Shown here piece by piece: positions 1,120-49,621 of a stretch of DNA of 64,000 nucleotides (the stretch's first letter is position 1; each line of letters begins with the position of its first letter). The notes under the pieces were generated by a model, which saw only the letters and a list, made by a program, of their open reading frames with translations, did not search any database and was not told the DNA's origin. Origin of the DNA: an uncultured Gammaproteobacteria bacterium. GTDB lineage: Bacteria; Pseudomonadota; Gammaproteobacteria; Natronospirales; JAIVGZ01. The DNA is taken from NCBI GenBank assembly GCA_964402835.1, contig CAYODZ010000187.1:3461-67460 (forward strand), read 5' to 3'. The position numbers and the translations under genes are program-made.

Positions 1120-2091
1120 TTATCGGGCGGAATGGCAACCGACGGTCGCGCGACTGGCATCGAGCGAACCGATGAGTTCGGAGACGTGGTTCATGCGGTG
1201 GCGGGTCAGGTAGTCGGCGATGCCGGCGCTGATGCGGGTGCAGGCGAGGGGGTCATAGAACAAACCGGTGCCGACGCCGACCGTCGTCGCGCCCGCAATC
1301 AGGAATTCGAGCGCATCGTTCGCGGTCACGATGCCGCCCTGGCCGATGATCGGGATGCCGTGCGGTTTCGCGACTTGATACACCTGCCACACCTTCAAGA
1401 GTGCGACGGGTTTGATGGCGGGCCCAGACAGTCCGCCTTGTACGTTACCGATCACAGGGCGCCGCAATTCCGCGTCGATCGCCATCCCCGTCAGCGTGTT
1501 GATGACCGCGAGGCCATCGGTCCCGGCCTCGATGCAGCGTTGCGCGCTGTACGCGATGTCGGTCTGGTTCGGAGATAGCTTTGTAATCAATGGCTTACGT
1601 GTGGCCTTGCGACAGGCCTCGACGACACGCGCCGACATGTCGGGGTCGTTGCCGAACTGGACGCCGCCTTCTTTTACATTCGGACAGCTGATGTTGATCT
1701 CGATGGCGTCAATCGGCGAGTCGTCGAAGCGACGGGTGACCTCGATGTACTCGTCGATCGTTGAGCCCGAGACGTTCGCGATGAAGCGCGTCTCCGAAAA
1801 ATCGAGCGTCGGCAGAATCTTGTCGACGACGTGGGCCGCGCCGGGATTCTGCAGGCCAATCGCGTTCAGCATGCCCATCGGCGTTTCATAGACGCGGTGC
1901 GGTGGGTTGCCGAGGCGCGCGGCACCGGTCGTGCCCTTCAGGACGATGGCCCCGGCATGCGCGTTCGAGAAGCCCTCGACGCGCGTATACTCCTCGCCGA
2001 ATCCGACGCAGCCCGACAGCAACACAATCGGGTTCGTCAGTTTCAACCCGCAAAAGTCGGTCGCGAGCGGCGAGGCCTCGTTATGTTTCAT
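1120..2091 (-). CDS. pyrD: class 1 (1B-like) dihydroorotate dehydrogenase catalytic subunit
   Basis: ORF 1120..2262 trimmed to ATG 2091 ([32 protein letters not shown]), which is colinear with B. subtilis-type PyrD. Motifs: [19 protein letters not shown] (class 1 Cys loop), [22 protein letters not shown] lies 4 nt upstream of the ATG. There is no adjacent pyrK. Confidence 0.75.
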
Positions 2092-2547
2092 GTTGTCCTT
2101 TACCAACCGGAAATCCCCCCGAACACGGGCAATATCATACGCCTGTGCGCGAACACGGGCGCCGACTTGCACCTCGTCCATCCGCTCGGCTTCGAACTCG
2201 ATGAGCCGCGCTTGCGCCGTGCGGGTCTTGATTACCGGGAGTGGACCCGAATCCATGAGCATCGCGATCTCGCCGCGTGCATCGCAGCGCTCGGCGACCC
2301 GCGCGTGGTCGCGTTCTCGTCAAAGGGCGGGACGCCATTCCAGGAATTCAAATTCGCGCCGGGTGACGCGCTGCTGTTTGGCCCCGAAACGCGCGGCTTG
2401 CCAGATGCGGTGACCGCACCGCTGCCTCCATCGCAGGTGTTGCGCTTGCCGATGGTGGCCGGGAACCGGAGCTTGAATCTTTCCAATGCGGTGGCGGTCG
2501 CCGTCTACGAAGCCTGGCGCCAACACGGCTACTCGGGCAGCCTCTAA
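2083..2547 (+). CDS. trmL: tRNA (cytidine/uridine-2'-O)-methyltransferase TrmL (SpoU family)
   Basis: ORF 1831..2547 trimmed to ATG 2083. [26 protein letters not shown] is nearly identical to the E. coli TrmL N-terminus, and the C-terminus has [20 protein letters not shown] lies 7 nt upstream. Confidence 0.88.
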
Positions 2548-2571
2548 TCCCCGCGGCCGCGACGCCTTGGC

Positions 2572-2818
2572 GGCGGCCTGCTACGACGGCCGGACCGAAC
2601 TCGCCGCTGCCGCTTCCCTCGACTGCGCGGCTGATTGACTGCTGCCTTGGGTGACCGGTTCTACCGCGGCAACTCTGTAAGGCGCTTTCGATTGAAGGGC
2701 TTACCCACGGTCGTCTCGGTCGCTCCCGGCGAGTTGTCCGTCCGCTCCGCTGGCCGGCTGAGGCATTGCTGCCAAGGTTGGCTGTGTCAGGTGGGAGCGA
2801 CGCTCCGCGTCGCGATTG
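2572..2818. repeat. copy A of a ~245-nt structured intergenic repeat (unknown family)
   Basis: Hand alignment to 48300-48545 gives about 90% identity in the same orientation, and the first ~105 nt differ at 2 positions. A 7-bp GC hairpin lies at 2797-2813. A long-range complement pairs 2591-2606 with 2727-2740. No coding potential is conserved. Confidence 0.8.
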
Positions 2819-2821
2819 GGG

Positions 2822-3817
2822 TCACTCGGCCTTAGGTTCGCGTGCCATCAGCGCCTGAAACGCGTCGCGCGGCGCGACGCCACCGTTCGCGACCGCATCG
2901 ACCTGCACGGCAATCGGCATCTCGATGCTGAGCTGCTGCGCGAGCCGCACGGTTTCAGCCGCTGCGCTGATGCCCTCGACGACTTGTCGGATTTCGCGTT
3001 CGGCGGTCGCGCGGTCGGCGCCACGGCCGAGTGCGAGGCCGAATCTTCGGTTGCGGGACTGATCGTCGGTACACGTGAGCACCAAGTCCCCGATGCCCGC
3101 GAGACCGAGAAAGGTCTCCTGCCGCCCACCGAGTGCGATCCCGAGTCGGACAATTTCCGATAGTCCGCGGGTGATCAGCGCGGCGCGTGCATTCGCGCCA
3201 AAGCCGAGCCCGTCCGACAGCCCCGCGGCGATGGCGAGGACGTTCTTCACGGCACCACCGACTTCGACACCGATGACGTCATCGCTGGAGTAAGTTCGGA
3301 AGCGTCCATGGTGTAAGGCTCGCGTCAGCGCGGATGCGAAATCCGCGTGCTTGGTCGCGGCGACAATCGCGGTCGGCAGGTCGGCGGCGACTTCGGCCGC
3401 GAACGTCGGTCCCGACAATACGGCGGTCGGTACCGAATCACCGAGAACTTCAGCGGCGACCGCGTGTGGCAGCGTTCCAGTGCCGGGTTCAAAGCCTTTG
3501 ACCGCGTAGGCGACGCGGGCGTCGGGCTGTAAGTGTGGTGCGATGCGTTCGAGCGTTTCGCGGAACGCATGCGACGGCACGGCGATGATGAAGTCGCGCA
3601 CACCAGTGCACGCAGCGTGAAGGTCCGCGGTCGGTTCGAGCGCGTCGGGAAAACGGGCGCCGGGTAGGTATCGCGCATTCTCGCGCGCCGTCGCCATCGC
3701 ACCCATCTGGACCGAGTCCCGGCCCCATAACCGGGTGTCGCCTGCCCTCGCGAGTTGCATCGCGAGCGCGGTGCCCCAAGAGCCCGCGCCGATGACCGCG
3801 ATCGGCGGGGTGGTCAG
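2822..3817 (-). CDS. gpsA: NAD(P)H-dependent glycerol-3-phosphate dehydrogenase
   Basis: ORF 2822..3760 has the GpsA core (SGPTFAAEV, GGAVKNVLAIAAG, TCTDDQSRNRRFG) but lacks the dinucleotide-binding N-terminus. That segment (IAVIGAGSWGTALA) is encoded in frame at 3761-3805. There is no in-frame ATG/GTG/TTG between the upstream stop (3902-3904) and 3760. CTG at 3815-3817 overlaps the secB stop as CTGA. The exact start is uncertain. Confidence 0.85.
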   Translation of the reverse strand: MTTPPIAVIGAGSWGTALAMQLARAGDTRLWGRDSVQMGAMATARENARYLPGARFPDALEPTADLHAACTGVRDFIIAVPSHAFRETLERIAPHLQPDARVAYAVKGFEPGTGTLPHAVAAEVLGDSVPTAVLSGPTFAAEVAADLPTAIVAATKHADFASALTRALHHGRFRTYSSDDVIGVEVGGAVKNVLAIAAGLSDGLGFGANARAALITRGLSEIVRLGIALGGRQETFLGLAGIGDLVLTCTDDQSRNRRFGLALGRGADRATAEREIRQVVEGISAAAETVRLAQQLSIEMPIAVQVDAVANGGVAPRDAFQALMAREPKAE

Positions 3818-4562: not shown

Positions 4563-4975
4563 TTCGCCAGCGGCATGCCCGCCGACTGCCAGGCTGCGAG
4601 GCCGCCATTCAACTGATAGACGCGTTTGCAGCCGCCGCGCACCAACTGTGCCGCAACGCGCGCGGAGGTCGCGCCGTTTTCGTCGTAAACGATTAGCGCA
4701 CTGTCCGCATACTTCCCGAGGTCCTGATCGGCGATCGAGTCTGCCGGCAGGCTCACCGCGTTGATGATGCGTCCCTGCTTGTAAGCGTCACGCGGTCGGA
4801 CGTCGAGCACCACGGCATCATCGTGGTTGATGAGGCGCGGCGCGTCAGCGGCATCGACGCTCTGATAGCCGCGCGTTGCATTGCGCAGCTCGAACGCGAC
4901 AATCAGCCCGAGCAGCGCCGCAGCGGACGCCGTCAGGAACGGATGATTCGAAATGAACTCGAGATACTGGGACAT
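4559..4975 (-). CDS. yibN: membrane-anchored rhodanese-domain protein (YibN-like)
   Basis: ORF 4559..5152 trimmed to ATG 4975 (MSQYLEFISNHPFLTASAAALLGLIVAF...). It has an N-terminal TM helix followed by a rhodanese fold (VVLDVRPRDAYKQGRIINAVSLP). Its position upstream of grxC matches E. coli. Confidence 0.75.
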   Translation of the reverse strand: MSQYLEFISNHPFLTASAAALLGLIVAFELRNATRGYQSVDAADAPRLINHDDAVVLDVRPRDAYKQGRIINAVSLPADSIADQDLGKYADSALIVYDENGATSARVAAQLVRGGCKRVYQLNGGLAAWQSAGMPLAK

Positions 4976-5006: not shown

Positions 5007-6548
5007 ATGCCGAACCGCCCCCGACCAATCGTCCTGGTCATCCTTGATGGCTGGGGCCACAGCGAAACCCTCGAACACAACGCCATCAAGGCCGCGAATA
5101 CGCCCTTTTGGCGCCAGTTGTGGCGCGATGCGCCGCACACACTCATCGACACCTCCGGCGATGCCGTTGGTCTCCCGGCCGGCCAAATGGGTAATTCCGA
5201 GGTCGGCCACCTGAATATCGGCTCTGGGCGTGTCGTTTACCAAGAGCTCACGCGCATCGGTTTGGCCATCGAAGACGGCACTTTTAACGATAATCCTGCG
5301 CTCGTTGCGGCCGTCGACGGCGCAACGAAGGCCGGTGGCGCGGTGCATGTGTTTGGGTTGCTGTCGCCCGGTGGCGTGCATAGCCATGAAGACCATCTTT
5401 TCGCGATGGTCGAGCTCGCGGCACGTCGCGGCGCGCAGCGCATCAACGTGCATGCGTTCCTCGATGGCCGTGATACACCGCCGCGAAGCGCACTCGAGTC
5501 GGTCGAGCGGCTCGAGGCCGTATGTTCCCGTTTCAATGGCGCGCGCATCGCATCGTTGTGTGGACGTTATTACGCGATGGACCGCGACAAGCGATGGGAC
5601 CGCGTGCGGCTTGCGTACGACATGCTGACGCTGGGCGTTGCGTCATACACCGCCCCGGATGCAGCCGCTGCGCTCTCCGCGGCGTATGCGCGCGACGAAT
5701 CCGATGAGTTCGTGAAGCCGACGCTCATCGGCGAGCCCGCGCCGGTCGTGGACGGCGACGCAGTGGTGTTCATGAATTTTCGGGCCGACCGCGCGCGCCA
5801 ATTGACGGCGGCATTCACGCAGCCCGCGTTCGATGGTTTCCAGCGCACGCGTTGCCCCGCGCTCGCGGCATTCGTCACGCTGACGGAATACCAGCAGGAC
5901 TTCGACTGTCCGGTTGCATATCCGCCAGCCGCGCTGTCGAACGTGCTCGGCGAGTACGCCGCAGCGAATGGCCTCCGGCAGTTGCGCATTGCGGAGACCG
6001 AGAAGTACGCGCATGTGACGTTCTTCTTCAACGGCGGGCGGGAAGACGAATTCGAGGGCGAAGACCGTGTGCTCGTGCCGTCACCGCGCGTCGCGACGTA
6101 CGACCTGAAGCCGGAAATGAGCGCGCCTGAGCTCACCGACCGCCTTTGCGATGCGATCCGATCGGGTACGTACGACCTCATTATTTGCAACTACGCGAAC
6201 GCGGACATGGTCGGCCATACCGGTGTGTTCGCAGCGGCGGTCGCGGCCGTTGAAGCCATCGACGCGAGCCTCGCACGCATTGCGGACGCGCTGAGCGAGG
6301 CGGGCGGCGAAATGTTGATTACCGCGGACCACGGCAACGTTGAGCAGTTGCACGATGCGGAAACTGGGCAAGCGCATACCGCGCATACGACCAATCTCGT
6401 GCCGCTTGTTTACTTCGGGGCGCGCGCCGTCGAGATGACGGGCACCGGCGTCCTCTCGGACGTTGCGCCGAGTCTGCTGGTGTTGCTGGGCATGCCACAG
6501 CCGAAAGAGATGACGGGTAAGGCGCTTCTGCGGGTCGTGAGTGGCTGA
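5007..6548 (+). CDS. gpmI: 2,3-bisphosphoglycerate-independent phosphoglycerate mutase
   Basis: 513 aa full-length match to the iPGM pattern ([26 protein letters not shown]). Confidence 0.95.
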
Positions 6549-9648: not shown

Positions 9649-11228
9649 CCGAGCCCCTCAAGGTCCGCACCGAGCAGGATCGCCGCAGCGATCACGAGCC
9701 CCGCGCCGACAATGGCGACTGCACGCCGTCGACTCCCAATGTTCATTTCGTCGTGCCAGCGGTCGAACTGCGCGGAGTGCCACTCCATTGATGTGCGGTG
9801 CTCGGAGAACTCCTCGAGCGCACGGGCCGCAAGCCGAGGCAGGTGGAGCAGCGCACGGATGTTCTCCGGTAGATGCTCGCGCCATTCGCGGTAGGCGGCG
9901 GTGACACCGAGTTGCTCTTGCATCCAGTTTTCGAGATACGGCTTCGCGGTCGCCCAGAGGTCGAGGTCTGGGTAGAGTTCGCGCCCGAGCCCCTCGATGT
10001 TCAGCAGGGTTTTCTGCAGCAGCACGAGCTGGGGCTGCACTTCCATGTCGAAGCGGCGCGCGGTCTGGAACAAGCGAATCAATAACAGCCCGAACGAAAT
10101 CTCTTTGAGCGGTCGGTGAAAAATCGGCTCGCACACCGTGCGAATCGCGCTCTCGAATTCGTCAACGCGCGTGCCTGCCGGCGCCCAGCCAGACTCGACG
10201 TGCAATTCCGCGACGCGACGGTAATCGCGGTTGAAGAACGCCAAAAAGTTTTCGGCGAGATAGCGTTGGTCTTCCGGGTTCAGGGTGCCGACGATGCCGA
10301 AGTCGATCGCGAGCCAGCGCGCATGCTCAGGGTCGGTGACGTCAACGAAGATGTTCCCTGGGTGCATGTCCGCGTGGAAGAAGTTGTGACTGAACACCTG
10401 CGTGAAGAAGATTTCAACGCCGTCTTCCGCGAGTTGCTTCAGGTTCACGCCGGCGGCGCGCAGCGCCGCCATATCGTTGACCTGGATACCCGAGATGCGT
10501 TCCATGACCATGACGCTGCGGCGCGTGAGGGGCCAGAAAATGTTCGGCACGCACAGCAACGGGGAGTTCTCCCAATTCCGGCGTAGGTGCGCGGCATTCG
10601 CGGCTTCGCGCATCAGATCAAGCTCGTCGTGGAGCGTCTTTCCGAACTCATCGACGACGGCGACCGGCCGCAGCCGCCGTCCGTCCTGCCAGTACCGCTC
10701 AGCCGCTTGCGCGATGAGGCGCATCAGCTCGACGTCCTCGCGAATGTGCTTCTCGACGTTGGGCCGCAAGACTTTGACCACTACCTGCGTGCCGTCGTGC
10801 AACTCGGCGGGGTGGACCTGCGCAATCGATGCCGAGGCGAGCGCGGTTTCATCGAATTTTGCGAACAGCGTGTCTACGGGTTCACCGAGGGCGCGTTCGA
10901 TTTCCGCACGCGCAAGCGCACCGGGGAACGGCTCGACACGGTCCTGCAACAGCGTGAGCTCGGCGGCGATGTCTGCGGGCACGACGTCGGGGCGTGTCGA
11001 CATCATCTGGCCGAACTTCACGAATATCGGGCCGAGTTCCTGTAGCGCAAGGCGGATACGCTGTCCGCGTGGCAGGCGGTCTGCGCGACGCCAATTCCAC
11101 GGCATCAAGTAGAGCATCCACCGAACCGGGCGGAAGAAATGCGTACTCAGTATCAGTTCGTCGAGGCCGTACTTCACCAAGACCTGCTGGATGCGAACTG
11201 CGCGCGCGATTTGTCTCGGCGAGATCAT
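9594..11228 (-). CDS. ubiB: ubiquinone biosynthesis regulatory protein kinase UbiB
   Basis: 544 aa ABC1/UbiB pattern (LQELGPIFVKFGQMMSTRPD, ASIAQVH, HADMHPGNIF) with C-terminal TM helices. ATGA overlap with ubiJ. Confidence 0.92.
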   Translation of the reverse strand: MISPRQIARAVRIQQVLVKYGLDELILSTHFFRPVRWMLYLMPWNWRRADRLPRGQRIRLALQELGPIFVKFGQMMSTRPDVVPADIAAELTLLQDRVEPFPGALARAEIERALGEPVDTLFAKFDETALASASIAQVHPAELHDGTQVVVKVLRPNVEKHIREDVELMRLIAQAAERYWQDGRRLRPVAVVDEFGKTLHDELDLMREAANAAHLRRNWENSPLLCVPNIFWPLTRRSVMVMERISGIQVNDMAALRAAGVNLKQLAEDGVEIFFTQVFSHNFFHADMHPGNIFVDVTDPEHARWLAIDFGIVGTLNPEDQRYLAENFLAFFNRDYRRVAELHVESGWAPAGTRVDEFESAIRTVCEPIFHRPLKEISFGLLLIRLFQTARRFDMEVQPQLVLLQKTLLNIEGLGRELYPDLDLWATAKPYLENWMQEQLGVTAAYREWREHLPENIRALLHLPRLAARALEEFSEHRTSMEWHSAQFDRWHDEMNIGSRRRAVAIVGAGLVIAAAILLGADLEGLGYLVGVGGVAAFGYALLR

Positions 11229-12579: not shown

Positions 12580-12924
12580 TTACCGCCTTGACGCGCCCGC
12601 GGCCTCCAGCCTTTCCAGGTATTCGCGCCAAAGGCGGTCCTGGTCGCGCCCGAGTTCCGCGAGCGTCGTCCAAGAATAGAGACCGGAATCGTGGCCGTCA
12701 TCGAACACCAGCCGGACCGCGTAGTTGCCAACGGGCTCGATCGCGCGGATACCCACGCCCTGTTTACCGGTCTCGAGTTTCATCGGGCCGCCGTGGCCGC
12801 GCACTTCGGCCGACGGGGAATAGACGCGTAGATACTCTGCGGGCAACACGTGACTTACGCCATCGGCAAACGTGACCACGAGCGTGCGGTCGGCCTTGTT
12901 ATAGCGGAGCTCGGTTGGCGTCAC
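12580..12924 (-). CDS. DUF971 family protein (gamma-butyrobetaine hydroxylase N-terminal-like)
   Basis: 114 aa with a GTG start (GTGA overlap with the xerC stop). Pattern: L.V.F.DG....L.AEYLRV.SPSAEV.GHG. The gene ends 9 nt upstream of the ubiE start. Confidence 0.65.
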
Positions 12925-13823
12925 CGGCGTTTCGCGCGCGGATGGGCCGCGTCATACACCTGCGCGAGGTGTTGGAAATCGAGGTGCGTGTAAATTTGCG
13001 TGGTTTTGATGTCCGCGTGTCCGAGCAACTCTTGGACGGCCCTTAAATCGCCGCTCGACTCGAGTAGGTGCGTCGCGAACGAATGGCGGAGCATGTGGGG
13101 GTGCACGTGGCGGTCGATGCCTTGCTGCTGCGCCCAGAACGTGAGTCGTCCCTGCACCACGCGCGGGCTGATGCGCGCGCCACGCTTGCCGACGAACAAG
13201 GCTGTTTCCGTCGCGCCCGCGAGTTTTGCGCGCACCGTGAGCCACGCTTTGACCGCGGCCCGCGCGGGCGTGCCGACGGGCACGATACGCGTCTTGTCGC
13301 CTTTGCCGGTGACACGCACCTGCGCATCGGCGAGGTCGACATCGCCGAGATCGAGCGAGCACAACTCGGCGAGGCGCAAACCCGACGAATAAAACAACTC
13401 GAGCATGGCTCGGTCACGCACGGTTTCGACCGAGTTGCCCTTGATGTCCAACAGCCGGCCGACTAGGTCGGCATCGAGAACAGCAGGAAGATGGCGCGCC
13501 GGTTTCGGTGTGCGGACGTCGAGTGCGGGGTTATGGCCGAGTTCGCCCTCGCGGATCAACCAACTACAGAACGTCCGGACGGCGGACAACCGGCGGCGAA
13601 GGCTCGCGGGCGACGATCCACGCCGGTGCTGTTCTGCAACAAACGCACGCACGTGGTGCACCGTGAGATCGCGCCATTCGGCGATTTCGTGCGCGCCGCA
13701 ATAGCGGAGGAGCGTGTTTAGGTCGCTGCGGTAAGCGTCTGCGGTGTGCGCCGACAGCCGGCGCTCGTGGATGAGGTGGCGGTCGATGAAGCGGTCGACC
13801 GCCGCCCCGAGGTCGGCGGGCAT
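12921..13823 (-). CDS. xerC: site-specific tyrosine recombinase XerC
   Basis: 300 aa with catalytic-region motifs ([38 protein letters not shown]). dapF-yigA-xerC synteny. Confidence 0.88.
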
Positions 13824-39025: not shown

Positions 39026-40858
39026 TCAGTCGGCGGGCGGGTACTCCTGAGCGCCGACCACGAGTGCACCGGGCCCTGCATGGACACCGAGTGCCGGGCC
39101 GACTTCGACGAGCCACGACGCCTGCACGTCCGGCAGCGCCGCCACGAGCATCTCGCGCAGGCGCGCGGCATCCCCGGGCGCGTTGCCGTGACTCACAATG
39201 AGGCGCCATGACTTTGCGGGGTCAAGTCGTTTCAATACAAAGCGCGCGAATTTACCGACCATGTCCTGTTTGCCGAACAACACGCCGCCAACGCCGACCC
39301 GACCGTCCGGTAGCGCAGTGAGAATGGGCCGCAATCGTAGGAAATCGGCAACGGTCTGTTTAGTCCGACTTACACGACCGCCGCGCACCGCGTGTTTGAG
39401 GTCGGCAATCGCCGCCCAGGTGAAGGTGCGCGGACGCATCATCTCGAGCCGTGAGGTGATTTCGTCGAGCGGCTTGCCGGCTTGAGCGAGTTCGGCCGCG
39501 TACATCGCGAGCAGCCCCTGACCTGCCGCGACGTTCATCGAATCGATGACGCGTACCGGCCCGCCGTCGACGCGCGACGCGGCGGACTCGGCCGCCTGAC
39601 AGGTGCCGCTGACACGCCGCGTCAGACTGACGGAGAGTACGGCATCGTGGTGCGTGGTCAGGAACTGGAATTGGCGGCGGAAATCGCCCGGCGCCGGTTG
39701 CGACGTCATCGGCTGGTGATCGGCACGGGCGAGCGCCTCGTAAAATTCACGCGGCGAAATCGAGACCTTGTCGAGGTAACTCCGATCGCCGAAATGCAGA
39801 CGCAGCGGGACGATATGGATGTTCAGACGCTCGAGTTCGCTGTCCGGGATGTCGGCGCCGGAGTCGGTGATCACCGCAACGCCGCGCGCGTGGGCTGCGG
39901 CCGTTGAGCTTTGGGCCTGCATATCGTCGGCTTTCTGGCTCGAGAGCGTGCCGAACATTTCCGCGATCAGGAACGCTTGTGCAGGGCTGTCGACGTGGAC
40001 GTGGACTTTGACCTTTTGCTTGGTGCCCGCGATGACGAGGCTCGAGCCGATTTCGGCGAGCTGCTCGCGCAGCGCCCGTCGGTCGATGTTTGTGCCGCTG
40101 ATGACGCATTCCGTGCAGTAACGGTGCTCGAGGTCGCCGGAATCGGCGGACGCCATCTGGTCGAACCCGGCGTCCGCCTCGCCCGCGGCAATCGGCGGCA
40201 AGCCGTCGCGCAGCGAGCCGCTATTGATGTACTCGACGACGCCGCGCAGAAGTTCCACGAATCCCGCGGCGCCCGCGTCGACAACATTCGCTCGTCGCAG
40301 CGCGTCGAGTTGCGCGGTGGTTCCAGCCAACGAGCTTTCCGCAGCTTTCAGTCCGTTCTCAAGTAGCGAGGCGAGGTCGCGCACCTGGCCGGTCGCGAGT
40401 TGCGCCTCGAGCGACACGGCGAAGTCTGTCAGTACCGTTAGGAGCGTTCCCTCCTTCGGTTCGCTGAGCGCTTCGCGCGCGTAGTCGGCGCCGAGGCGGA
40501 CCGCACGCGTGAACCGTTTGACCGACAACATACGCAGGGCCGTCGCGCCATCGCTCATGCCTTGAAAGAACTGCGCGAGGATCGCACCCGAATTGCCGCG
40601 GGCACCGTCGAGCGCGGAATCGGCGAGCGCGTTCAGGAGGTTACCGACGTGTCGGTCGAGGTTGTTGGTGACGCCAGCGAGTACCGCGCTCAGCGTTAAG
40701 GAGATATTTGTGCCCGTGTCACCGTCAGCGACCGGGAACACATTGATCTTGTTCAGATGCTCCTGGCGCGCGATGACGCGCTGTATGCCGGCATGCAACG
40801 CGCGGTGGAGGCGAAATCCGTCGATATACCCGATGCCGGGTGTGCTAACCGCTGACAT
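39026..40858 (-). CDS. DAK2 (DhaL/FakA-like) domain fused to DegV (FakB-like) fatty-acid-binding domain
   Basis: ORF 39026..40972 trimmed to ATG 40858. N-terminus: INVFPVADGDTGTNISLT (DAK2 Mg-nucleotide motif). Middle: VDAGAAGF, HRYCTECVI, GSSLVIAGTKQKVKVHVHVDSP (FakA/YloV-like). C-terminus: VAVITDSGADIP...IVPLRLHFGDRSYLD...MTSQPAPGDF...VSGTCQAA (DegV pattern). Confidence 0.8.
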   Translation of the reverse strand: MSAVSTPGIGYIDGFRLHRALHAGIQRVIARQEHLNKINVFPVADGDTGTNISLTLSAVLAGVTNNLDRHVGNLLNALADSALDGARGNSGAILAQFFQGMSDGATALRMLSVKRFTRAVRLGADYAREALSEPKEGTLLTVLTDFAVSLEAQLATGQVRDLASLLENGLKAAESSLAGTTAQLDALRRANVVDAGAAGFVELLRGVVEYINSGSLRDGLPPIAAGEADAGFDQMASADSGDLEHRYCTECVISGTNIDRRALREQLAEIGSSLVIAGTKQKVKVHVHVDSPAQAFLIAEMFGTLSSQKADDMQAQSSTAAAHARGVAVITDSGADIPDSELERLNIHIVPLRLHFGDRSYLDKVSISPREFYEALARADHQPMTSQPAPGDFRRQFQFLTTHHDAVLSVSLTRRVSGTCQAAESAASRVDGGPVRVIDSMNVAAGQGLLAMYAAELAQAGKPLDEITSRLEMMRPRTFTWAAIADLKHAVRGGRVSRTKQTVADFLRLRPILTALPDGRVGVGGVLFGKQDMVGKFARFVLKRLDPAKSWRLIVSHGNAPGDAARLREMLVAALPDVQASWLVEVGPALGVHAGPGALVVGAQEYPPAD

Positions 40859-44085: not shown

Positions 44086-45840
44086 ATGGACCTATTGCGA
44101 CAGTTCTCAAGTCGGGCTACTTTAGCGCCCGTCGGCGACGGAGTTGCCGTCCTTTTCCTCCGTCGTCGAAGGATACAAAATCGAATGAGTCACCCCGAAC
44201 GCCGCCACCAGGCGGTGACGGCCTTGATGCGCCAACTATTTCGCCAAGACCTGACCGGCGTATCTGTCGATGGGTTTGCGTCGTTGTTTCTCGAACAGTT
44301 GACCGGTCTGCTGATGCTGGATACTGCGGTGCTCATCCTCGATGGCCGTATCCGCGCGGTGGGTCGGGTGCCCGACCGTGCCACGCTTGAGGAGGACGAC
44401 TCGCTTTCCTGGGCACGCGACGAGGGTGCGGGCGTGGAGCTTGCGTTGGGTAACGTAGGCGGAGAGATCGCGGAGTCCGCGCTGGGTATTTTCGTCTGCC
44501 TCGTCGAGCGGCGGCGCGCCGAGCAACGGCTGATGCACGATGCTTTCCACGACGCATTGACCGGGCTGCCGAATCGCGCATTGTTCCTCGAGCATCTCGA
44601 CCACGCGATGGAGCGTGCTCGACGGTCGTCGGGTTACATGTTCTCCGTTCTATTTATCGACCTCGATCGTTTCAAGCTCGTCAACGATGGGCTTGGGCAC
44701 GACGCCGGGGACAAACTGTTGGTTGGTTTCGCGCAGCGGCTTCGTCGACTGGTGCGTGGTGGAGACGTCGTCGCGCGCCTCGGCGGTGACGAGTTTGCGA
44801 TCCTTGCGGACGAGCTCGCGGAGGTCAACGACGCAATCCAGATGGCGAGCCGGATTAAAAACGGCATGCAGGCTCCGTTCGAGTTTGACGGTCGCACAAT
44901 CAGCATGAGCGCGAGCGTCGGCGTCGCGCGGAGCGCGCCGAGATATGAGCAGGGCAGCGAGCTATTGCGAGATGCAGACATCGCGATGTGTCGCGCGAAG
45001 GCGCAAGGCGGCGGCACGCATCTGATGTTTGATGCTGAGATGCACGCCAGCAGCGTGGCCCGTATGCAACTGGAGACGGACTTACGGGCCGCGGTGGGTG
45101 GAAATCAACTGCGTCTCGCTTACCAGCCAATCATCCGGGTCGCGGATGGACGACTCGCGGGTTTCGAGGCGTTGTTGCGGTGGCGTCACCCCACGCGCGG
45201 CAATATTCCGCCGGCTGATTTCATCAGTGTGGCGGAGGAAACCGGCTTGATCGTACGCATCGGGCGGTGGACGCTCGGCGAAGTTTGTCGGCGCTTGTCG
45301 GTGCTGAACCACAATCGTGCTTCCCCGGTTTCCATCAGCGTAAACCTGTCGGACCGTGAATTCTTGCAGCCGGGTCTCGTCAACGAGATTGAATACGCGC
45401 TACGGGAGCATGGCGTGCGTCCGGAAACGTTGCATATCGAACTCACCGAGCGAATGTTGATGGCGCACACGTCAATAGCGACCGAGGTGTTGCCCCGCCT
45501 CCGGGAAATCGGCGTGAAGTTGATGCTCGATGACTTCGGAACCGGACAGTCGTCGCTGAGCCGGCTCGAGCGCCTGCCGGTCGACGCACTGAAGCTCGAC
45601 TATTCGTTCATTCGGGGTATGGATACAAACCGTGTGCGCGGCGGTATTGTGCGCGCGGTCGTTGGTCTCGCCCATGACCTCGATATCAAGGTCGTCGCCG
45701 AGGGTGTTGAGAGCGCGGAGCAGCTCAATTTATTGCGCGCGGCGGGATGCGATTTCGCGCAGGGCTACCTTTTCTCTGAGGCGCTTGAGGACCGTAGCGT
45801 CAGTCCGATGCTCGCGCGCGAGGCTTGGCTACCGGCGTGA
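44086..45840 (+). CDS. GGDEF-EAL dual-domain cyclic-di-GMP signalling protein
   Basis: GGDEF motif RLGGDEFAIL, EAL motif FEALLRW, and DDFGTGQSSLS. The ~150-aa N-terminal region has no fold I recognise. An alternative start is ATG 44185 (AAGGA upstream). Confidence 0.85.
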   Translation: MDLLRQFSSRATLAPVGDGVAVLFLRRRRIQNRMSHPERRHQAVTALMRQLFRQDLTGVSVDGFASLFLEQLTGLLMLDTAVLILDGRIRAVGRVPDRATLEEDDSLSWARDEGAGVELALGNVGGEIAESALGIFVCLVERRRAEQRLMHDAFHDALTGLPNRALFLEHLDHAMERARRSSGYMFSVLFIDLDRFKLVNDGLGHDAGDKLLVGFAQRLRRLVRGGDVVARLGGDEFAILADELAEVNDAIQMASRIKNGMQAPFEFDGRTISMSASVGVARSAPRYEQGSELLRDADIAMCRAKAQGGGTHLMFDAEMHASSVARMQLETDLRAAVGGNQLRLAYQPIIRVADGRLAGFEALLRWRHPTRGNIPPADFISVAEETGLIVRIGRWTLGEVCRRLSVLNHNRASPVSISVNLSDREFLQPGLVNEIEYALREHGVRPETLHIELTERMLMAHTSIATEVLPRLREIGVKLMLDDFGTGQSSLSRLERLPVDALKLDYSFIRGMDTNRVRGGIVRAVVGLAHDLDIKVVAEGVESAEQLNLLRAAGCDFAQGYLFSEALEDRSVSPMLAREAWLPA

Positions 45841-48256
45841 ACTTCGCCGCCTCGGTGCCGAGCGCGTCGAACTCGAAGTCGTCGACCGCGATCACCGCAG
45901 CGGTGAGTTCCGCGGCGCGAGCAAGTTGTCCGTACTCGGTGTCGCTGATGAGGCCCGCGTCCCGCGCGGCTCGCGCATCCTCCGTCTCGCCGGTGCGCTG
46001 CAACTCGCGCAGCTTCCGATAGGCGGCATCTGCCTTGATGACGGCCTGCAGTGCGAGGCCAAGCTGGCCGACCGGGTCGCTAGCGTCGTCCGGCGTGTAG
46101 ATATCCGCGCACAGCCGTGCACGGACCGACGTCGATTCCATCAGTTGGTCGGCAACCTCGTGGCCAAGCCGGTCGCTCGGCGCGGAGTAAGTGCGACCGA
46201 GCGGGAAGCTCAGAATGCGCAATACGAACGCCACCGGTCGATTCGGAAAATTGCGTAGGAATCCGTGCAGTTGTTCCTGAAACCGGTACAGCTGCGTCCG
46301 TAAAGCCCATTCGACCAATGGCAGGTCCGCGGTCTGGCGGCCATCGTCCTCGAATCGTTTGAGAATTGCAGAGGTGATGTAGAGGTGGCTCAGCAAATCG
46401 CCGAGTCGGCCCGAGAGCTTTTCACGCCGCTTCAAGTCGCCCCCCATCACGAGCATCGCAACGTCGGCAGCGAGCGCGAATGACGCCGCGAAGCGATTCA
46501 GGTGCTGGTAGTAACGGCGAGTCGGTGACGACGGCGCCGCGGAGAATCGCGACATTGTCAGCGCCATCCAGAACGAGCGCACAGCGTTCGAGATCGCGAA
46601 ACCGACGTGCCTAACGAGTGCGCGGTCGAAGCGCACGAGACCGGCGTCGGGGTCGGGGTCGCGCGCGGCTTCCATTTCCTCGAACACGAACGGATGACAG
46701 CGGATTGCGCCTTGACCAAAGATGATGAGGCTGCGCGTTAGGATGTTCGCGCCCTCGACGGTGATGGCAATCGGCACGGACTGCCATGATCGTCCGAGCC
46801 AGTTGCGGGGCCCGAGGCAGATGCCCTTGCCGCCGTGTACATCCATCGCATCGTTCGCGACGCTACGACCGAATTCGGTTGCGTGATACTTCGCAATTGC
46901 GCCGGCGACTGCGGGCTTCTCGCCGGCATCCAGCGCGGCAGCCGTGAAGCTGCGCAACGCGTCAACCGCATAGGTAAAGCCACCGATGCGCGCGAGCGCC
47001 TCTTCGATGCCTTCGAATCGCCCGATCGGTAGCCCAAACTGGTGGCGGACGCGTGCGTACGCACCGGTCGCCCAACACGCGAACTTCGCACCACCGGTCG
47101 CGTTCGCAGGCAGCGAGATGGAGCGGCCAACCGAGAGGCATTCCATCAGCATGCGCCAGCCTTCACCCACCATCGCGGAACCGCCGACGATGAAATCAAG
47201 TGGGACGAACACGTCGGTACCGCGCACGGGACCGTTATGGAACGGAATGTTCAGCGGGAAATGACGGCGCCCGATTTCCATCCCTGGCGTGTCGCGTGGA
47301 ATGAGCGCGAGCGTGATGCCGCGATCCTCGTCGCCGCCGAGCAGGCCGTCGGGATCCTTGAGCCGGAACGCTAGCCCAATCACGGTCGCGATTGGTGCGA
47401 GTGTGATGTAGCGCTTGTCGAACGTGAGTCGCATACCCAGCACGTCTTCGCCGTTCCACTCGCCGCGGCAGACCACGCCGGTGTCCGGCAGCGACGCAGC
47501 GTCGGAACCGGCGGTCGGACCGGTCAGTGCAAAACAGGGAATGTCTTCACCACGCGCGAGGCGGGGCAAGTAATGGTCCTTCTGCGCCTCGGTGCCGTAC
47601 ATCAACAAGAGTTCCGCAGGCCCGAGTGAGTTCGGCACGGCGACCATCGATGCGGCGGTCGGACTGCGAGACGCGATCTTGCCGAGCACTTGTGAATGCG
47701 CGTACGCCGAGAACTCGAGGCCACCGTAGTGCTTCGGGATAATCATCGCGAAAAAGCCATTGGACTTGATGTAGTCCCAGGCCTCGGGCGATAAGTCGGC
47801 CCGCTCGTGCGTGATTTCCCACTCGTTCAACATCCCGCACAGGGTCTCTACGGGGCCATCGAGGAACGCGCGTTCCTCATCACTGAGTCGGGGTGCGGCG
47901 AGTGCGTGTAGGTCGCGCCATGCGGGAATGCCGCTGAACAAAGTGCCTTCCCAGCCGACGGTGCCGGCCTCGAGCGCGTCGCGCTCGGTGTCCGACATCG
48001 AGGGAAGCACGCGACGGAATGCAGCGAACGCTGGACGCGAGAGGTACTCGCGTCGGATGGCGACGACATTCAGGGGAATCGCGACGGCGGCGAGCACCAG
48101 CCAACCGAGCAACGCGAGCCAGCCCGAGTCACCGAACAGCGTGTAGAGCAGGACAAACCCGGCGGCGACCGCGGTGGATGTCGCGAGCGACGCGCGGTAC
48201 CACGCAAGGGCCCCGAAGGTCGCGAATAACAGCACCAGCCAAAGTACGGTTTCCAT
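45800..48256 (-). CDS. fadE: large membrane-anchored acyl-CoA dehydrogenase FadE
   Basis: 818 aa with N-terminal TM helices, an ACAD core, and the long C-terminal FadE extension. Length and layout match E. coli FadE. Confidence 0.9.
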   Translation of the reverse strand: METVLWLVLLFATFGALAWYRASLATSTAVAAGFVLLYTLFGDSGWLALLGWLVLAAVAIPLNVVAIRREYLSRPAFAAFRRVLPSMSDTERDALEAGTVGWEGTLFSGIPAWRDLHALAAPRLSDEERAFLDGPVETLCGMLNEWEITHERADLSPEAWDYIKSNGFFAMIIPKHYGGLEFSAYAHSQVLGKIASRSPTAASMVAVPNSLGPAELLLMYGTEAQKDHYLPRLARGEDIPCFALTGPTAGSDAASLPDTGVVCRGEWNGEDVLGMRLTFDKRYITLAPIATVIGLAFRLKDPDGLLGGDEDRGITLALIPRDTPGMEIGRRHFPLNIPFHNGPVRGTDVFVPLDFIVGGSAMVGEGWRMLMECLSVGRSISLPANATGGAKFACWATGAYARVRHQFGLPIGRFEGIEEALARIGGFTYAVDALRSFTAAALDAGEKPAVAGAIAKYHATEFGRSVANDAMDVHGGKGICLGPRNWLGRSWQSVPIAITVEGANILTRSLIIFGQGAIRCHPFVFEEMEAARDPDPDAGLVRFDRALVRHVGFAISNAVRSFWMALTMSRFSAAPSSPTRRYYQHLNRFAASFALAADVAMLVMGGDLKRREKLSGRLGDLLSHLYITSAILKRFEDDGRQTADLPLVEWALRTQLYRFQEQLHGFLRNFPNRPVAFVLRILSFPLGRTYSAPSDRLGHEVADQLMESTSVRARLCADIYTPDDASDPVGQLGLALQAVIKADAAYRKLRELQRTGETEDARAARDAGLISDTEYGQLARAAELTAAVIAVDDFEFDALGTEAAKFTPVAKPRARASD

Positions 48257-48299
48257 GGCTGAATCTTAGCAGCCCTACTGGGCGGCGGCCCGCTCAGGT

Positions 48300-48545
48300 G
48301 GCGGCCTGCTGCGACGGCCGGACCGAACTCGCCGCTGCCGCTTCCCTCGACTGCGCGGCTGATTGACTGCCGCCTTGGGTGACCGGTTCTACCGCGGCAA
48401 CTCTGCGCGGCGCCTTCGGTGGAGGGCTTACCCACGGACGTCTCGGTCGCTCCCGGCGAGTTGTCCGTCCGCTCCGCTGGCCGGCTGCCGTCGTGTCGCC
48501 AAGGTTCGCTGCGTCAGGTGGGAGCGGCGCTTCGCGCCGCGATGG
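48300..48545. repeat. copy B of the ~245-nt structured intergenic repeat
   Basis: See copy A (2572-2818). Hairpin at 48524-48540 (GCGGCGC-TTC-GCGCCGC). It lies between the mdh stop and the fadE start. Confidence 0.8.
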
Positions 48546-48621
48546 TCGCGCCACCGGCGTGTCCCGTTGGTGCCTGACCCCATGTGTCCCATGGCACCGC
48601 GCGATGGTTATGCCACCGGCG
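48538..48621. repeat. composite short-repeat block flanking repeat copy B
   Basis: A 22-nt direct repeat CGCGATGGTNNNGCCACCGGCG lies at 48538-48559 and 48600-48621 (19/22 identical). It brackets GTGTCCC-N-TGG direct repeats (48559..., 48584...) and a GGTGCC/GGCACC inverted pair (48569-48574 / 48593-48598). Confidence 0.6.
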
Positions 48622-48640: not shown

Positions 48641-49621
48641 TTAGCCGAGCAGTTCCTCGACGCCGGCGCGCTCCTCACGGAGCTCCGAGTTGGTCGCGTC
48701 GAGCCGCTCGCGGCTGAATGCGTCGATATCGAGCCCTTGGACGATCTCGTACTGGCCGCCCTTGCAAGTGACCGGGAATGAGTAGACGACGCCTTCTTCG
48801 ATGCCGTAACTGCCATCGGACGGAATCCCCATCGACGTCCAGTCACCGTCGGCGGTGTCGAGCGCCCAGGTCCGCATATGGTCGATCGCGGCCGACGCTG
48901 CCGATGCGGCAGAAGACGCACCGCGCGCCTTGATGATCGCGGCGCCGCGTTGCTGGACGGTGGGGATGAAGGTCTCAGTGAGCCAAGCGCTGTCGAGCCG
49001 CTCAATGGCCGGCTTACCGGAGACCAACGCGTGGCTGACGTCCGGGTACTGAGTGGACGAGTGGTTGCCCCAGATGGTCATACGAGTGATGTCGCTGGTA
49101 TGGACGTCCAGCTTCAGCGCGAGCTGCGCGAGCGCGCGGTTATGGTCGAGGCGCGTCATCGCCGTGAATTGACGGCGGTCGAGGCGCGGCGCGTTGCTCG
49201 CTGCGATCAGTGCGTTCGTGTTCGCGGGGTTGCCCACGACGAGCACGCGCACGCCCGAATCTGCATGGTCGTTCATCGCCTTGCCTTGGACCGAGAAAAT
49301 CGCCGCGTTCGCGGTGAGTAGGTCCTTGCGCTCCATGCCCGGGCCGCGCGGACGGGCGCCGACGAGCAGTGCGTAGTCGGTCGACGCAAACGCATCTTCC
49401 GGCTTGTCCGTGGCGACGATGTCGACAAGGAGCGGAAACGCACAATCGCGCAGCTCCATTACGACGCCTTCCAGTGTCGGCAACGCTGGCGTGATTTCAA
49501 GTAACTGAAGGATGACCGGTTGGTCGGGGCCGAGCATGTCGCCAGCCGCGATACGGAACGCGAGCGCGTAGCCAATTTGACCGGCGGCGCCTGTAATGGT
49601 GATTCGAACGGGTTTTTTCAT
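48641..49621 (-). CDS. mdh: malate dehydrogenase
   Basis: 326 aa ([14 protein letters not shown], catalytic region [12 protein letters not shown]). Confidence 0.95.

Follow-up and report, generated by a model that had tools for sequence, protein, structure and literature searches.

A two-copy repeat composed of a REP and a separable non-coding body at extragenic sites of an uncultured gammaproteobacterium

A non-coding repeat of about 245 nt occurs twice, in the same orientation, in a 64,000-nt stretch of DNA from an uncultured gammaproteobacterium (GenBank assembly GCA_964402835.1, contig CAYODZ010000187.1, positions 3,461 to 67,460; hereafter the window), which has a G+C content of 63.9 % and carries conserved chromosomal genes. 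Each copy closes with a GC-rich hairpin in which a double substitution preserves base pairing, and the locus therefore raises the question of whether the repeat represents a structured RNA or a mobile element copied as DNA. Our analysis indicated that the repeat is not the single unit that it was first taken for, and instead comprises a repetitive extragenic palindrome (REP) at its right end and a separable body of about 220 nt. On balance, we judge that the composite is probably a non-autonomous repeat of low copy number, associated with a REP, and that DNA-level copying brought it to two extragenic sites in one lineage. Described in this way it is largely explained, with the REP being an already known kind of element and the body a lineage-specific passenger.

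The two copies were identified by blastn as direct repeats of 248 nt with 90.7 % identity (E 6e-96), and their pairing was confirmed by a repeat search and by MAFFT. The 23 differences between copy A and copy B consist of 15 transitions, 7 transversions and a one-base indel, and they are clustered: the first 110 nt hold 4 and the remaining 138 nt hold 19 (Fisher p 0.007), most of them in two short blocks. Possible causes of this clustering include constraint, partial gene conversion and loop-like variable segments. An original prediction, made from the letters of the window, had described a two-copy repeat about 90 % identical with some 23 differences, only two of them early in the repeat. The first part was borne out, with limits at most 3 nt from those determined here, and the second holds for positions 2572-2677. 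No third copy or fragment was found in the window by blastn (word size 7) or nhmmer. The parts of the repeat are as follows.

2569-2816, plus strand: repeat copy A (body and REP), filling the spacer between trmL and gpsA (blastn, MAFFT, repeat search)
48297-48543, plus strand: repeat copy B (body and REP), within the 384-nt spacer between mdh and fadE (blastn, MAFFT, repeat search)
2788-2816, plus strand: REP A, CAG-GTGGGA-GCGACGC-TCC-GCGTCGC-GAT, with the head at 2791-2796 and the stems at 2797-2803 and 2807-2813
48515-48543, plus strand: REP B, CAG-GTGGGA-GCGGCGC-TTC-GCGCCGC-GAT (pattern match, DNA folding)
2569-2787, unstranded: body A, non-coding, joined to the REP head, with no homolog found outside the window
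48297-48514, unstranded: body B, as body A
2678-2695, unstranded: variable block 1, holding 7/23 of the clustered differences between the copies
2761-2770, unstranded: variable block 2, holding 7/23 of the differences
2591-2606 (48319-48334 in copy B), unstranded: left arm of an internal inverted repeat, CGGAC(CG)AACTCGCCG, the same in both copies
2727-2740 (48454-48467 in copy B), unstranded: right arm of the internal inverted repeat, CGGCGAGTTGTCCG, the same in both copies

The hairpin at the right end carries several hallmarks of a REP. Such elements are recognized as imperfect palindromes of 20-40 nt that form a stable hairpin, have GT(A/G)G at their 5' foot, lie outside genes and usually exceed 100 copies per genome. 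In both copies a 7-bp GC stem encloses a 3-nt loop (GCGACGC-TCC-GCGTCGC at 2797-2813; GCGGCGC-TTC-GCGCCGC at 48524-48540), and folding as DNA gave -9.1 kcal/mol for REP A (z -2.3 against shuffles) and -10.4 kcal/mol for REP B (z -2.9). A GTGG tetranucleotide stands at the 5' foot of each palindrome (2791-2794 and 48518-48521), and the head, stem position and tail of GTGGGAGCGACGCTCCGCGTCGCGAT and GTGGGAGCGGCGCTTCGCGCCGCGAT are arranged as in published REPs, the consensus sequences of which include GTGGGAGCGAGCTTGCTCGCGAT (PF8 of P. fluorescens), TGTGGGAGCGGCCTTGcGTCGCGA (Pput3 of P. putida) and GTAGGAGCGCGCTCGCGCGCGA (X. campestris) (PMC2817692, PMC3686654). The head and tail in the window, GTGGGAGCG...CGCGAT, are identical to the PF8 consensus and close to those of Pput3 and X. 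campestris. Both palindromes are extragenic, 8 nt past the gpsA stop codon and about 100 nt past that of mdh, and the orientation of the REP relative to the upstream gene is the same at gpsA, at mdh and at a third site downstream of gpmI in related genomes. The density amounts to two per 64 kb in the window and two per 21 kb in relative L096, with further sites in L008 and L095. Judged from its sequence architecture, there is strong support for the terminal hairpin being a canonical REP of the GT(A/G)GGAGCG...CGCGA(T) class. The proposal of a REP-like or MITE-like element (MITE, miniature inverted-repeat transposable element) was right for the hairpin, whose GTGG head places it in a published REP class, and both copies are insertions specific to this lineage.

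The fourth pair of the stem, A:T in copy A and G:C in copy B, was confirmed, and the double substitution that it represents is real; what did not stand is its use as evidence for an RNA, since the same pair covaries across the REP family. Metagenomes were scanned with the pattern TCGCGRCGC-N3-6-GCGYCGCTCCCAC, in which the fourth pair is free within purine/pyrimidine, yielding 77 loci, part of them rpmF coding sequence and many of them intergenic. In 53 deduplicated loci that were neither rpmF nor coding-like, the fourth pair was G-C in 32, A-T in 10, G-T in 7 and A-C in 4, a covariation with a Fisher p of 5e-4 by a statistic that ignores kinship among loci. This pattern indicates that the compensatory change reflects the normal maintenance of a DNA palindrome and is not evidence for RNA. 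It also carries a general caution, namely that in a high-GC proteobacterium a GC hairpin with a 'compensatory' change in an intergenic repeat marks a REP palindrome and not a structured RNA. The class forms clusters in the metagenomes, including a tandem triplet (L072) and inverted doublets spaced about 60-70 nt apart (L017, L047, L066 and L039).

Two further features of the scan were noted. The beginning of rpmF (ribosomal protein L32, ...SRRNMRRSH...) fits the pattern TCGCGGCGC-N5-GCGCCGCTCCCAC as well, which makes this gene a source of false positives for REP regular expressions; rpmF coding sequence accounted for about 11/64 distinct metagenome matches (L012, L014, L024, L030, L033, L041, L044, L046, L060, L061, L064 and others). 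In four metagenome contigs (L019, L020, L053 and L056) the REP is nested in a larger conserved palindrome, CTCCATGTA-REP-...TCGTGGACATGGAG, showing that this class is embedded in larger repeat units in other organisms.

Comparison of the two sites with those of relatives supported the view that both were newly filled. The flanking features are listed below.

2083-2547, plus strand: trmL, flanking copy A (ORF and domain comparison; ORF, open reading frame)
2822-3760, minus strand: gpsA, flanking copy A; the REP stem begins 8 nt past its stop codon
2548-2568, unstranded: flank of copy A near trmL, absent from copy B, with a partial match to L096 at the same position (CCCCGCGRCCGCKACG)
45800-48256, minus strand: fadE, flanking copy B
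48641-49621, minus strand: mdh, flanking copy B
48266-48274, minus strand: GGCTGCTAA, directly upstream of the fadE ATG, resembling the mdh end and spacer of relatives, GGCTAA-TCCAGGC-ATG
48294-48301, plus strand: TCAGGTGG, which borders copy B on its left and recurs at 48514-48521 (REP head)
48582-48621, plus strand: decayed lead-in and tail of a second REP, 62 nt downstream of REP B (CGCGATGGTTATGCCACCGGCG against CGCGATGGTCGCGCCACCGGCG, 86 % identity)

Copy A fills the spacer between the convergent genes trmL and gpsA, the latter with its stop codon at 2822-2824 on the minus strand. The stop codons of these genes are 1 nt apart in L007 and L008 (GpsA 78 % identical). In L010 (GpsA 81 % identical) a 41-nt spacer contains the REP only, AATCGCGACGC-cgtga-GCGTCGCTCCCACCTG, and a REP hairpin after gpsA is also present in L009 (88 %), L095 and L096 (86 %). 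In L096 the REP is followed by an unrelated non-coding segment of about 150 nt (11029-11182), located between the REP head and the trmL stop codon. This segment was considered as a diverged homologue of the body and rejected, its best z being 1.5 once the REP was excluded; it has several GTAG motifs and no match elsewhere among the sequences compared. The loops are 3 nt long in REP A and REP B against 5 nt in the orthologous REPs of L009, L010 and L096. The 21 nt at 2548-2568 are probably ancestral spacer.

At the second site, a 384-nt spacer separates the stop codon of mdh (48641-48643) from the ATG of fadE (48256), both genes being on the minus strand. The earlier observation that both copies sit downstream of minus-strand gene ends, of gpsA and of mdh, agrees with the positions of these stop codons. 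The spacer contains, in order, about 40 nt, the body, the REP and about 95 nt that include the decayed second REP lead-in and tail. In L094, where Mdh is 94 % identical, it measures just 7 nt, and L089-L093 (88 %) have 6 nt, indicating that the entire 384-nt insert now found between mdh and fadE is new, and the two genes are probably co-transcribed in these relatives. In L088 the spacer (4651-4703) is 53 nt long with a different, GTAG-headed palindrome, AGTAGTAGTCGACGCGGCCGGGCGCGTG, showing that another REP-like sequence colonized the same junction independently. The fadE ATG is preceded in the window by GGCT(GCT)AA-GATTCAGCC-ATG, similar to GGCTAA-TCCAGGC-ATG of L094, and the fadE-proximal sequence at 48266-48274 is perhaps left over from a duplication of the region around the mdh stop codon. 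A third location behaves comparably: L096 (7235-7262), L095 (2-30) and L008 (765-793) carry a REP of this class downstream of gpmI. The window has none there, and its gpmI (5007-6548) overlaps with the gene that follows (6541-6548). This is a presence/absence polymorphism at an orthologous site. In sum, the alignments provide strong support for both copies being insertions at sites that are empty or differently filled in relatives.

The body itself proved to be restricted to the window in every collection searched. No homolog was detected among 96 fetched loci (blastn, nhmmer), nor in a plasmid collection (distant blastn), among JGI metagenomes (exact 22-mer) or in viral contigs (two 22-mers). 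An exact 20-mer gave four chance matches only in the GTDB representative genomes, from which the window itself was not recovered, its source genome being outside that collection. The idea that the body consists of decayed REP units was rejected because comparison with the REP unit, in both orientations, gave no significant similarity. Body and REP nevertheless meet at an identical nucleotide in both copies, ...GTCAG/GTGGGAGCG (the slash marks the junction), and homology to the solo REP of L010 begins at CAGGTGG, matching this junction; the arrangement corresponds to fixed-position integration at a REP. At the left edge, CTTGGCGG in copy A stands where copy B has TCAGGTGG, and the TCAGGTGG pair of copy B is possibly a target duplication or a core repeat. 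A hairpin at the left end of copy A (2556-2578), tried as a second REP, had a z of about 0 against shuffles and is not shared by copy B. The internal inverted repeat, predicted originally as a conserved long-range complement, was found in both copies as 9 uninterrupted bp and, past a 2-nt bulge, 5 more. Shuffling of the body produced a perfect inverted repeat of 9 bp in 8 % of cases (p about 0.08), and the arms in the window, being invariant in both copies, are uninformative for covariation.

A separate complementarity links the body to the REP. Positions 2719-2727 (GTCGCTCCC) are a perfect 9-nt complement of the REP head and left stem at 2793-2801 (GGGAGCGAC), and the match in copy B is 8/9, the altered position forming a G-T. 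Either chance (rough p about 0.05) or an alternative pairing in competition with the REP hairpin could account for it.

The possibility of an RNA or protein product was addressed with several independent searches. No Rfam 15 family matched anywhere in the window at gathering thresholds, and relaxing the cut-off to E up to 10 for both spacers returned a sole match, CRISPR-DR20 on the REP hairpin, at 13.7 bits against a gathering threshold of 42 and, in copy B, at chance level (E 7.7). Minimum free energy z-scores for the two strands of the two copies were -0.5, -0.9, +0.5 and +1.4 against shuffles, and RNAalifold recovered one compensatory pair only on both strands, the one in the REP stem. Neither strand of either copy has a sigma-70 promoter consensus; neither strand carries an intrinsic terminator (a GC hairpin followed by a T/U tract), in agreement with the earlier remark that no T/U tract follows the hairpin; and no Rho-utilization-like C-rich strand bias was seen, the GC skew being about 0. 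Six-frame translation revealed no ORF shared by the copies, and the prediction that they are not protein-coding was confirmed, their peptides sharing LTAALGDRFYRGNS before diverging. A concatenated six-frame query against 5.8 billion proteins returned no called ORFs over similar DNA within a limit of 8000 candidates. The alternative raised at the outset, a repeated structured RNA module, thus found no support: in addition to the absence of an Rfam family, the folding energies close to those of shuffles, the single compensatory pair within the REP and the lack of promoter and terminator consensus, the module is absent from the corresponding sites of relatives.

Several known systems offer points of comparison. 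REPs of the GT(A/G)GGAGCG...CGCGA(T/A) class are associated with REP-associated tyrosine transposases (RAYTs) (Nunvar et al. 2010, PMC2817692; Nunvar et al. 2013, PMC3686654), which act on REPs and on REPINs (PMC3116915, PMC3333891). A RAYT is a Y1 HUH transposase, and its gene is expected in the genome with the same REPs on its flanks. The palindromes of the window resemble RAYT-type REPs in their length of about 26 nt, in the GTGG head 5' of a 7-bp GC palindrome, in the loop of 3-5 nt and in the CGCGAT tail, as well as in their extragenic position after gene ends, their presence or absence at orthologous sites, their paired changes and their clusters in other genomes. They differ from these in being single and each fused to a 220-nt body. 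In a REPIN, two REPs in inverted orientation, spaced about 60-70 nt apart, fold together into one long hairpin (PMC3116915). Like REPINs (Bertels & Rainey 2011, PMC3116915) and bacterial interspersed mosaic elements, the repeat is a REP-containing composite, extragenic or within an operon, that has been copied within the genome, and site B includes a further REP-tail unit, decayed and arranged in tandem; unlike a REPIN, it has a body without a second REP, and the whole unit folds no better than shuffles. With MITEs it shares its small size, non-coding content, intergenic position and empty sites in relatives, but it lacks terminal inverted repeats as well as a consistent target-site duplication, and only two copies of it are known. 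A parallel to the junction is found in ISPpu9, an insertion sequence (IS) of the IS110 family in P. putida KT2440, which inserts at AG at a fixed REP position with the palindrome downstream of its right end (PMC12288879, PMC8450116). Its orphan ssr9 modules, which carry a small RNA (sRNA) of about 180 nt between boxes of 43 and 16 bp, occur in intergenic REPs in a few copies and circularize with the transposase supplied in trans (PMC12288879, PMC8450116). The repeat is similar to ssr9 as a non-coding module without a transposase, with a fixed REP junction, the palindrome downstream and few copies, yet it has no sequence similarity to ssr9, has the AG repeat in one of two copies and has no recognizable A/B-box-like ends.

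Taken together, these observations favour DNA-level copying of a REP-associated non-autonomous repeat. The right end is a REP of the class that RAYTs are thought to maintain in gammaproteobacterial genomes, and in the mechanism that we envisage body and REP would have been copied together as DNA into two sites, between the convergent stop codons of trmL and gpsA and into the gap between mdh and fadE. A trans-acting enzyme would recognize the REP head, either a RAYT or an IS110-type REP-targeting recombinase, and we infer that the composite is selfish and non-autonomous, relying on such an enzyme in trans for its copying. Effects on the host would be incidental. The REP hairpin past the gpsA and mdh stop codons could have a stabilizing or modulating role at the 3' end. 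There is moderate support for the body being selfish DNA and not an RNA gene.

A number of observations weigh against this interpretation. The known copies are the two in the 64-kb window, which leaves both the mobility of the body and its multi-copy status unproven. The repeat has no terminal inverted repeats, its sole notable inverted repeat being internal, and an 8-nt flanking direct repeat is present in copy B only. A Pfam scan of about 60 window ORFs detected no RAYT, IS transposase or integrase, the only recombinase being a housekeeping XerC-like protein (12921-13823). The REPs at both sites are single units and not the inverted doublets (REPINs) that are presumed to be the mobile form. 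Part of the body could be under functional constraint, to judge from the clustering of differences between the copies, which selfish DNA would not explain. Finally, a small hairpin at 2681-2701 stays paired through G-U despite two one-sided changes, on the plus strand only, and this is weakly compatible with an RNA.

Three other explanations were weighed. One holds that a REP-containing spacer underwent a one-off segmental duplication or gene conversion, through recombination or template switching at the REP or at GC-rich microhomology, with neither dedicated mobility nor function. We regard this as possible but unlikely. The presence of two copies only in all collections searched is what it would predict, as are the lack of terminal inverted repeats, of a consistent target duplication and of a transposase in the window, and the REP that relatives already have at the gpsA site could have seeded recombination there. 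However, both sites are inserted relative to those of relatives, such that neither is an obvious ancestral donor, and at the two sites homology stops at the same positions to within a few nt and does not continue into the flanks. REP A is also closer to REP B, with which it shares the shorter loop, than to its orthologues, and the different segment on the same REP head in L096 suggests recurrent events at this junction.

A more specific alternative is that the body is an orphan non-coding module of a REP-targeting IS110-family element comparable to ssr9, that is, a segment of about 200 nt, perhaps encoding an sRNA, that a recombinase encoded elsewhere would have excised in circular form and inserted into the REP head at a fixed dinucleotide. 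In both copies the junction of body and REP reads ...TCAG/GTGG with the palindrome downstream, the body is similar in size to ssr9, copy B has TCAGGTGG at both ends and L096 has a different insert at the same junction. Even so we consider this explanation very unlikely: the AG (TCAGGTGG) is missing from the left end of copy A, the palindrome near the left end of the body scores no better than shuffles (z about 0), the window is without an IS110 transposase, and promoter or terminator consensus, an Rfam match and similarity to the plasmid collection were all lacking. A duplicated gene for a structured sRNA, represented by two paralogues in which the REP hairpin acts as a 3' stabilizer (plus strand) or a 5' stabilizer (minus strand), appears highly improbable. 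Such a gene would account for the conserved stems of predicted helices with differences clustered in two short blocks, for the plus-strand hairpin kept paired via G-U, and for the conserved 14-bp long-range complement. Against this, folding energy is no better than that of shuffles on either strand of either copy, the sole compensatory pair belongs to the REP and is a family-wide property of DNA, no Rfam family or promoter or intrinsic terminator consensus was identified, and relatives whose flanking proteins are 78-94 % identical do not have the repeat at the orthologous sites, which is not what a conserved RNA gene would show.

The REP-associated repeat is of modest interest in that the body is fused to a REP head at the same nucleotide in two newly filled sites, with an unrelated insert in a relative. 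By analogy, REP heads in this lineage might act as landing sites at which short non-coding modules insert site-specifically, with the body mobilized in trans and possibly encoding an RNA, although we consider this quite unlikely. It would parallel the ssr9 modules of ISPpu9 or would represent unrecognized RAYT-driven cargo, and it would explain the different inserts at the same REP junction, namely the body in the window and the 150-nt segment in L096. Should further copies exist, the repeat would provide a natural example outside Pseudomonas of non-coding cargo using REPs as integration sites, as well as a case of an insertion splitting the tightly coupled mdh-fadE pair.

Two additional observations concern the REPs themselves. 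Four Logan contigs from three related organisms (the ends of L001, L002, L009 and L095) stop 1-3 nt past a REP head, and the L095 contig begins as well as ends at REP heads. Assembly breaks at these positions fit multi-copy k-mers or a polymorphic junction and population heterogeneity, without proving either. The distance from the gpsA stop codon to the start of the REP stem is 6-10 nt in four lineages. REPs of E. coli within about 15 nt of a stop codon reportedly lower the expression of the upstream gene (Liang, Rudd and Deutscher, in 2015), and by analogy an effect of the REP on gpsA expression is possible in this host.

The surroundings of the copies displayed further minor features. The claim that the copies occupy the only two sizeable spacers was roughly right, in that a crude ORF tiling covered 96.8 % of the window and left two further gaps of about 230-300 nt; these lie at 813-1119 and 40367-40592 and contain neither a REP nor any similarity to the repeat. 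In the longest ORF for trmL (1831-2547, 238 aa), the N terminus is extended by 84 residues, in overlap with the opposite-strand gene pyrD (1120-2262), and both the TrmL domain and the L007 homolog begin at the ATG at 2083. Near copy B, a GGDEF-EAL gene (44086-45840) adjoins fadE at a position where the close relative L094 has a small CBS-domain gene, representing a difference in synteny.

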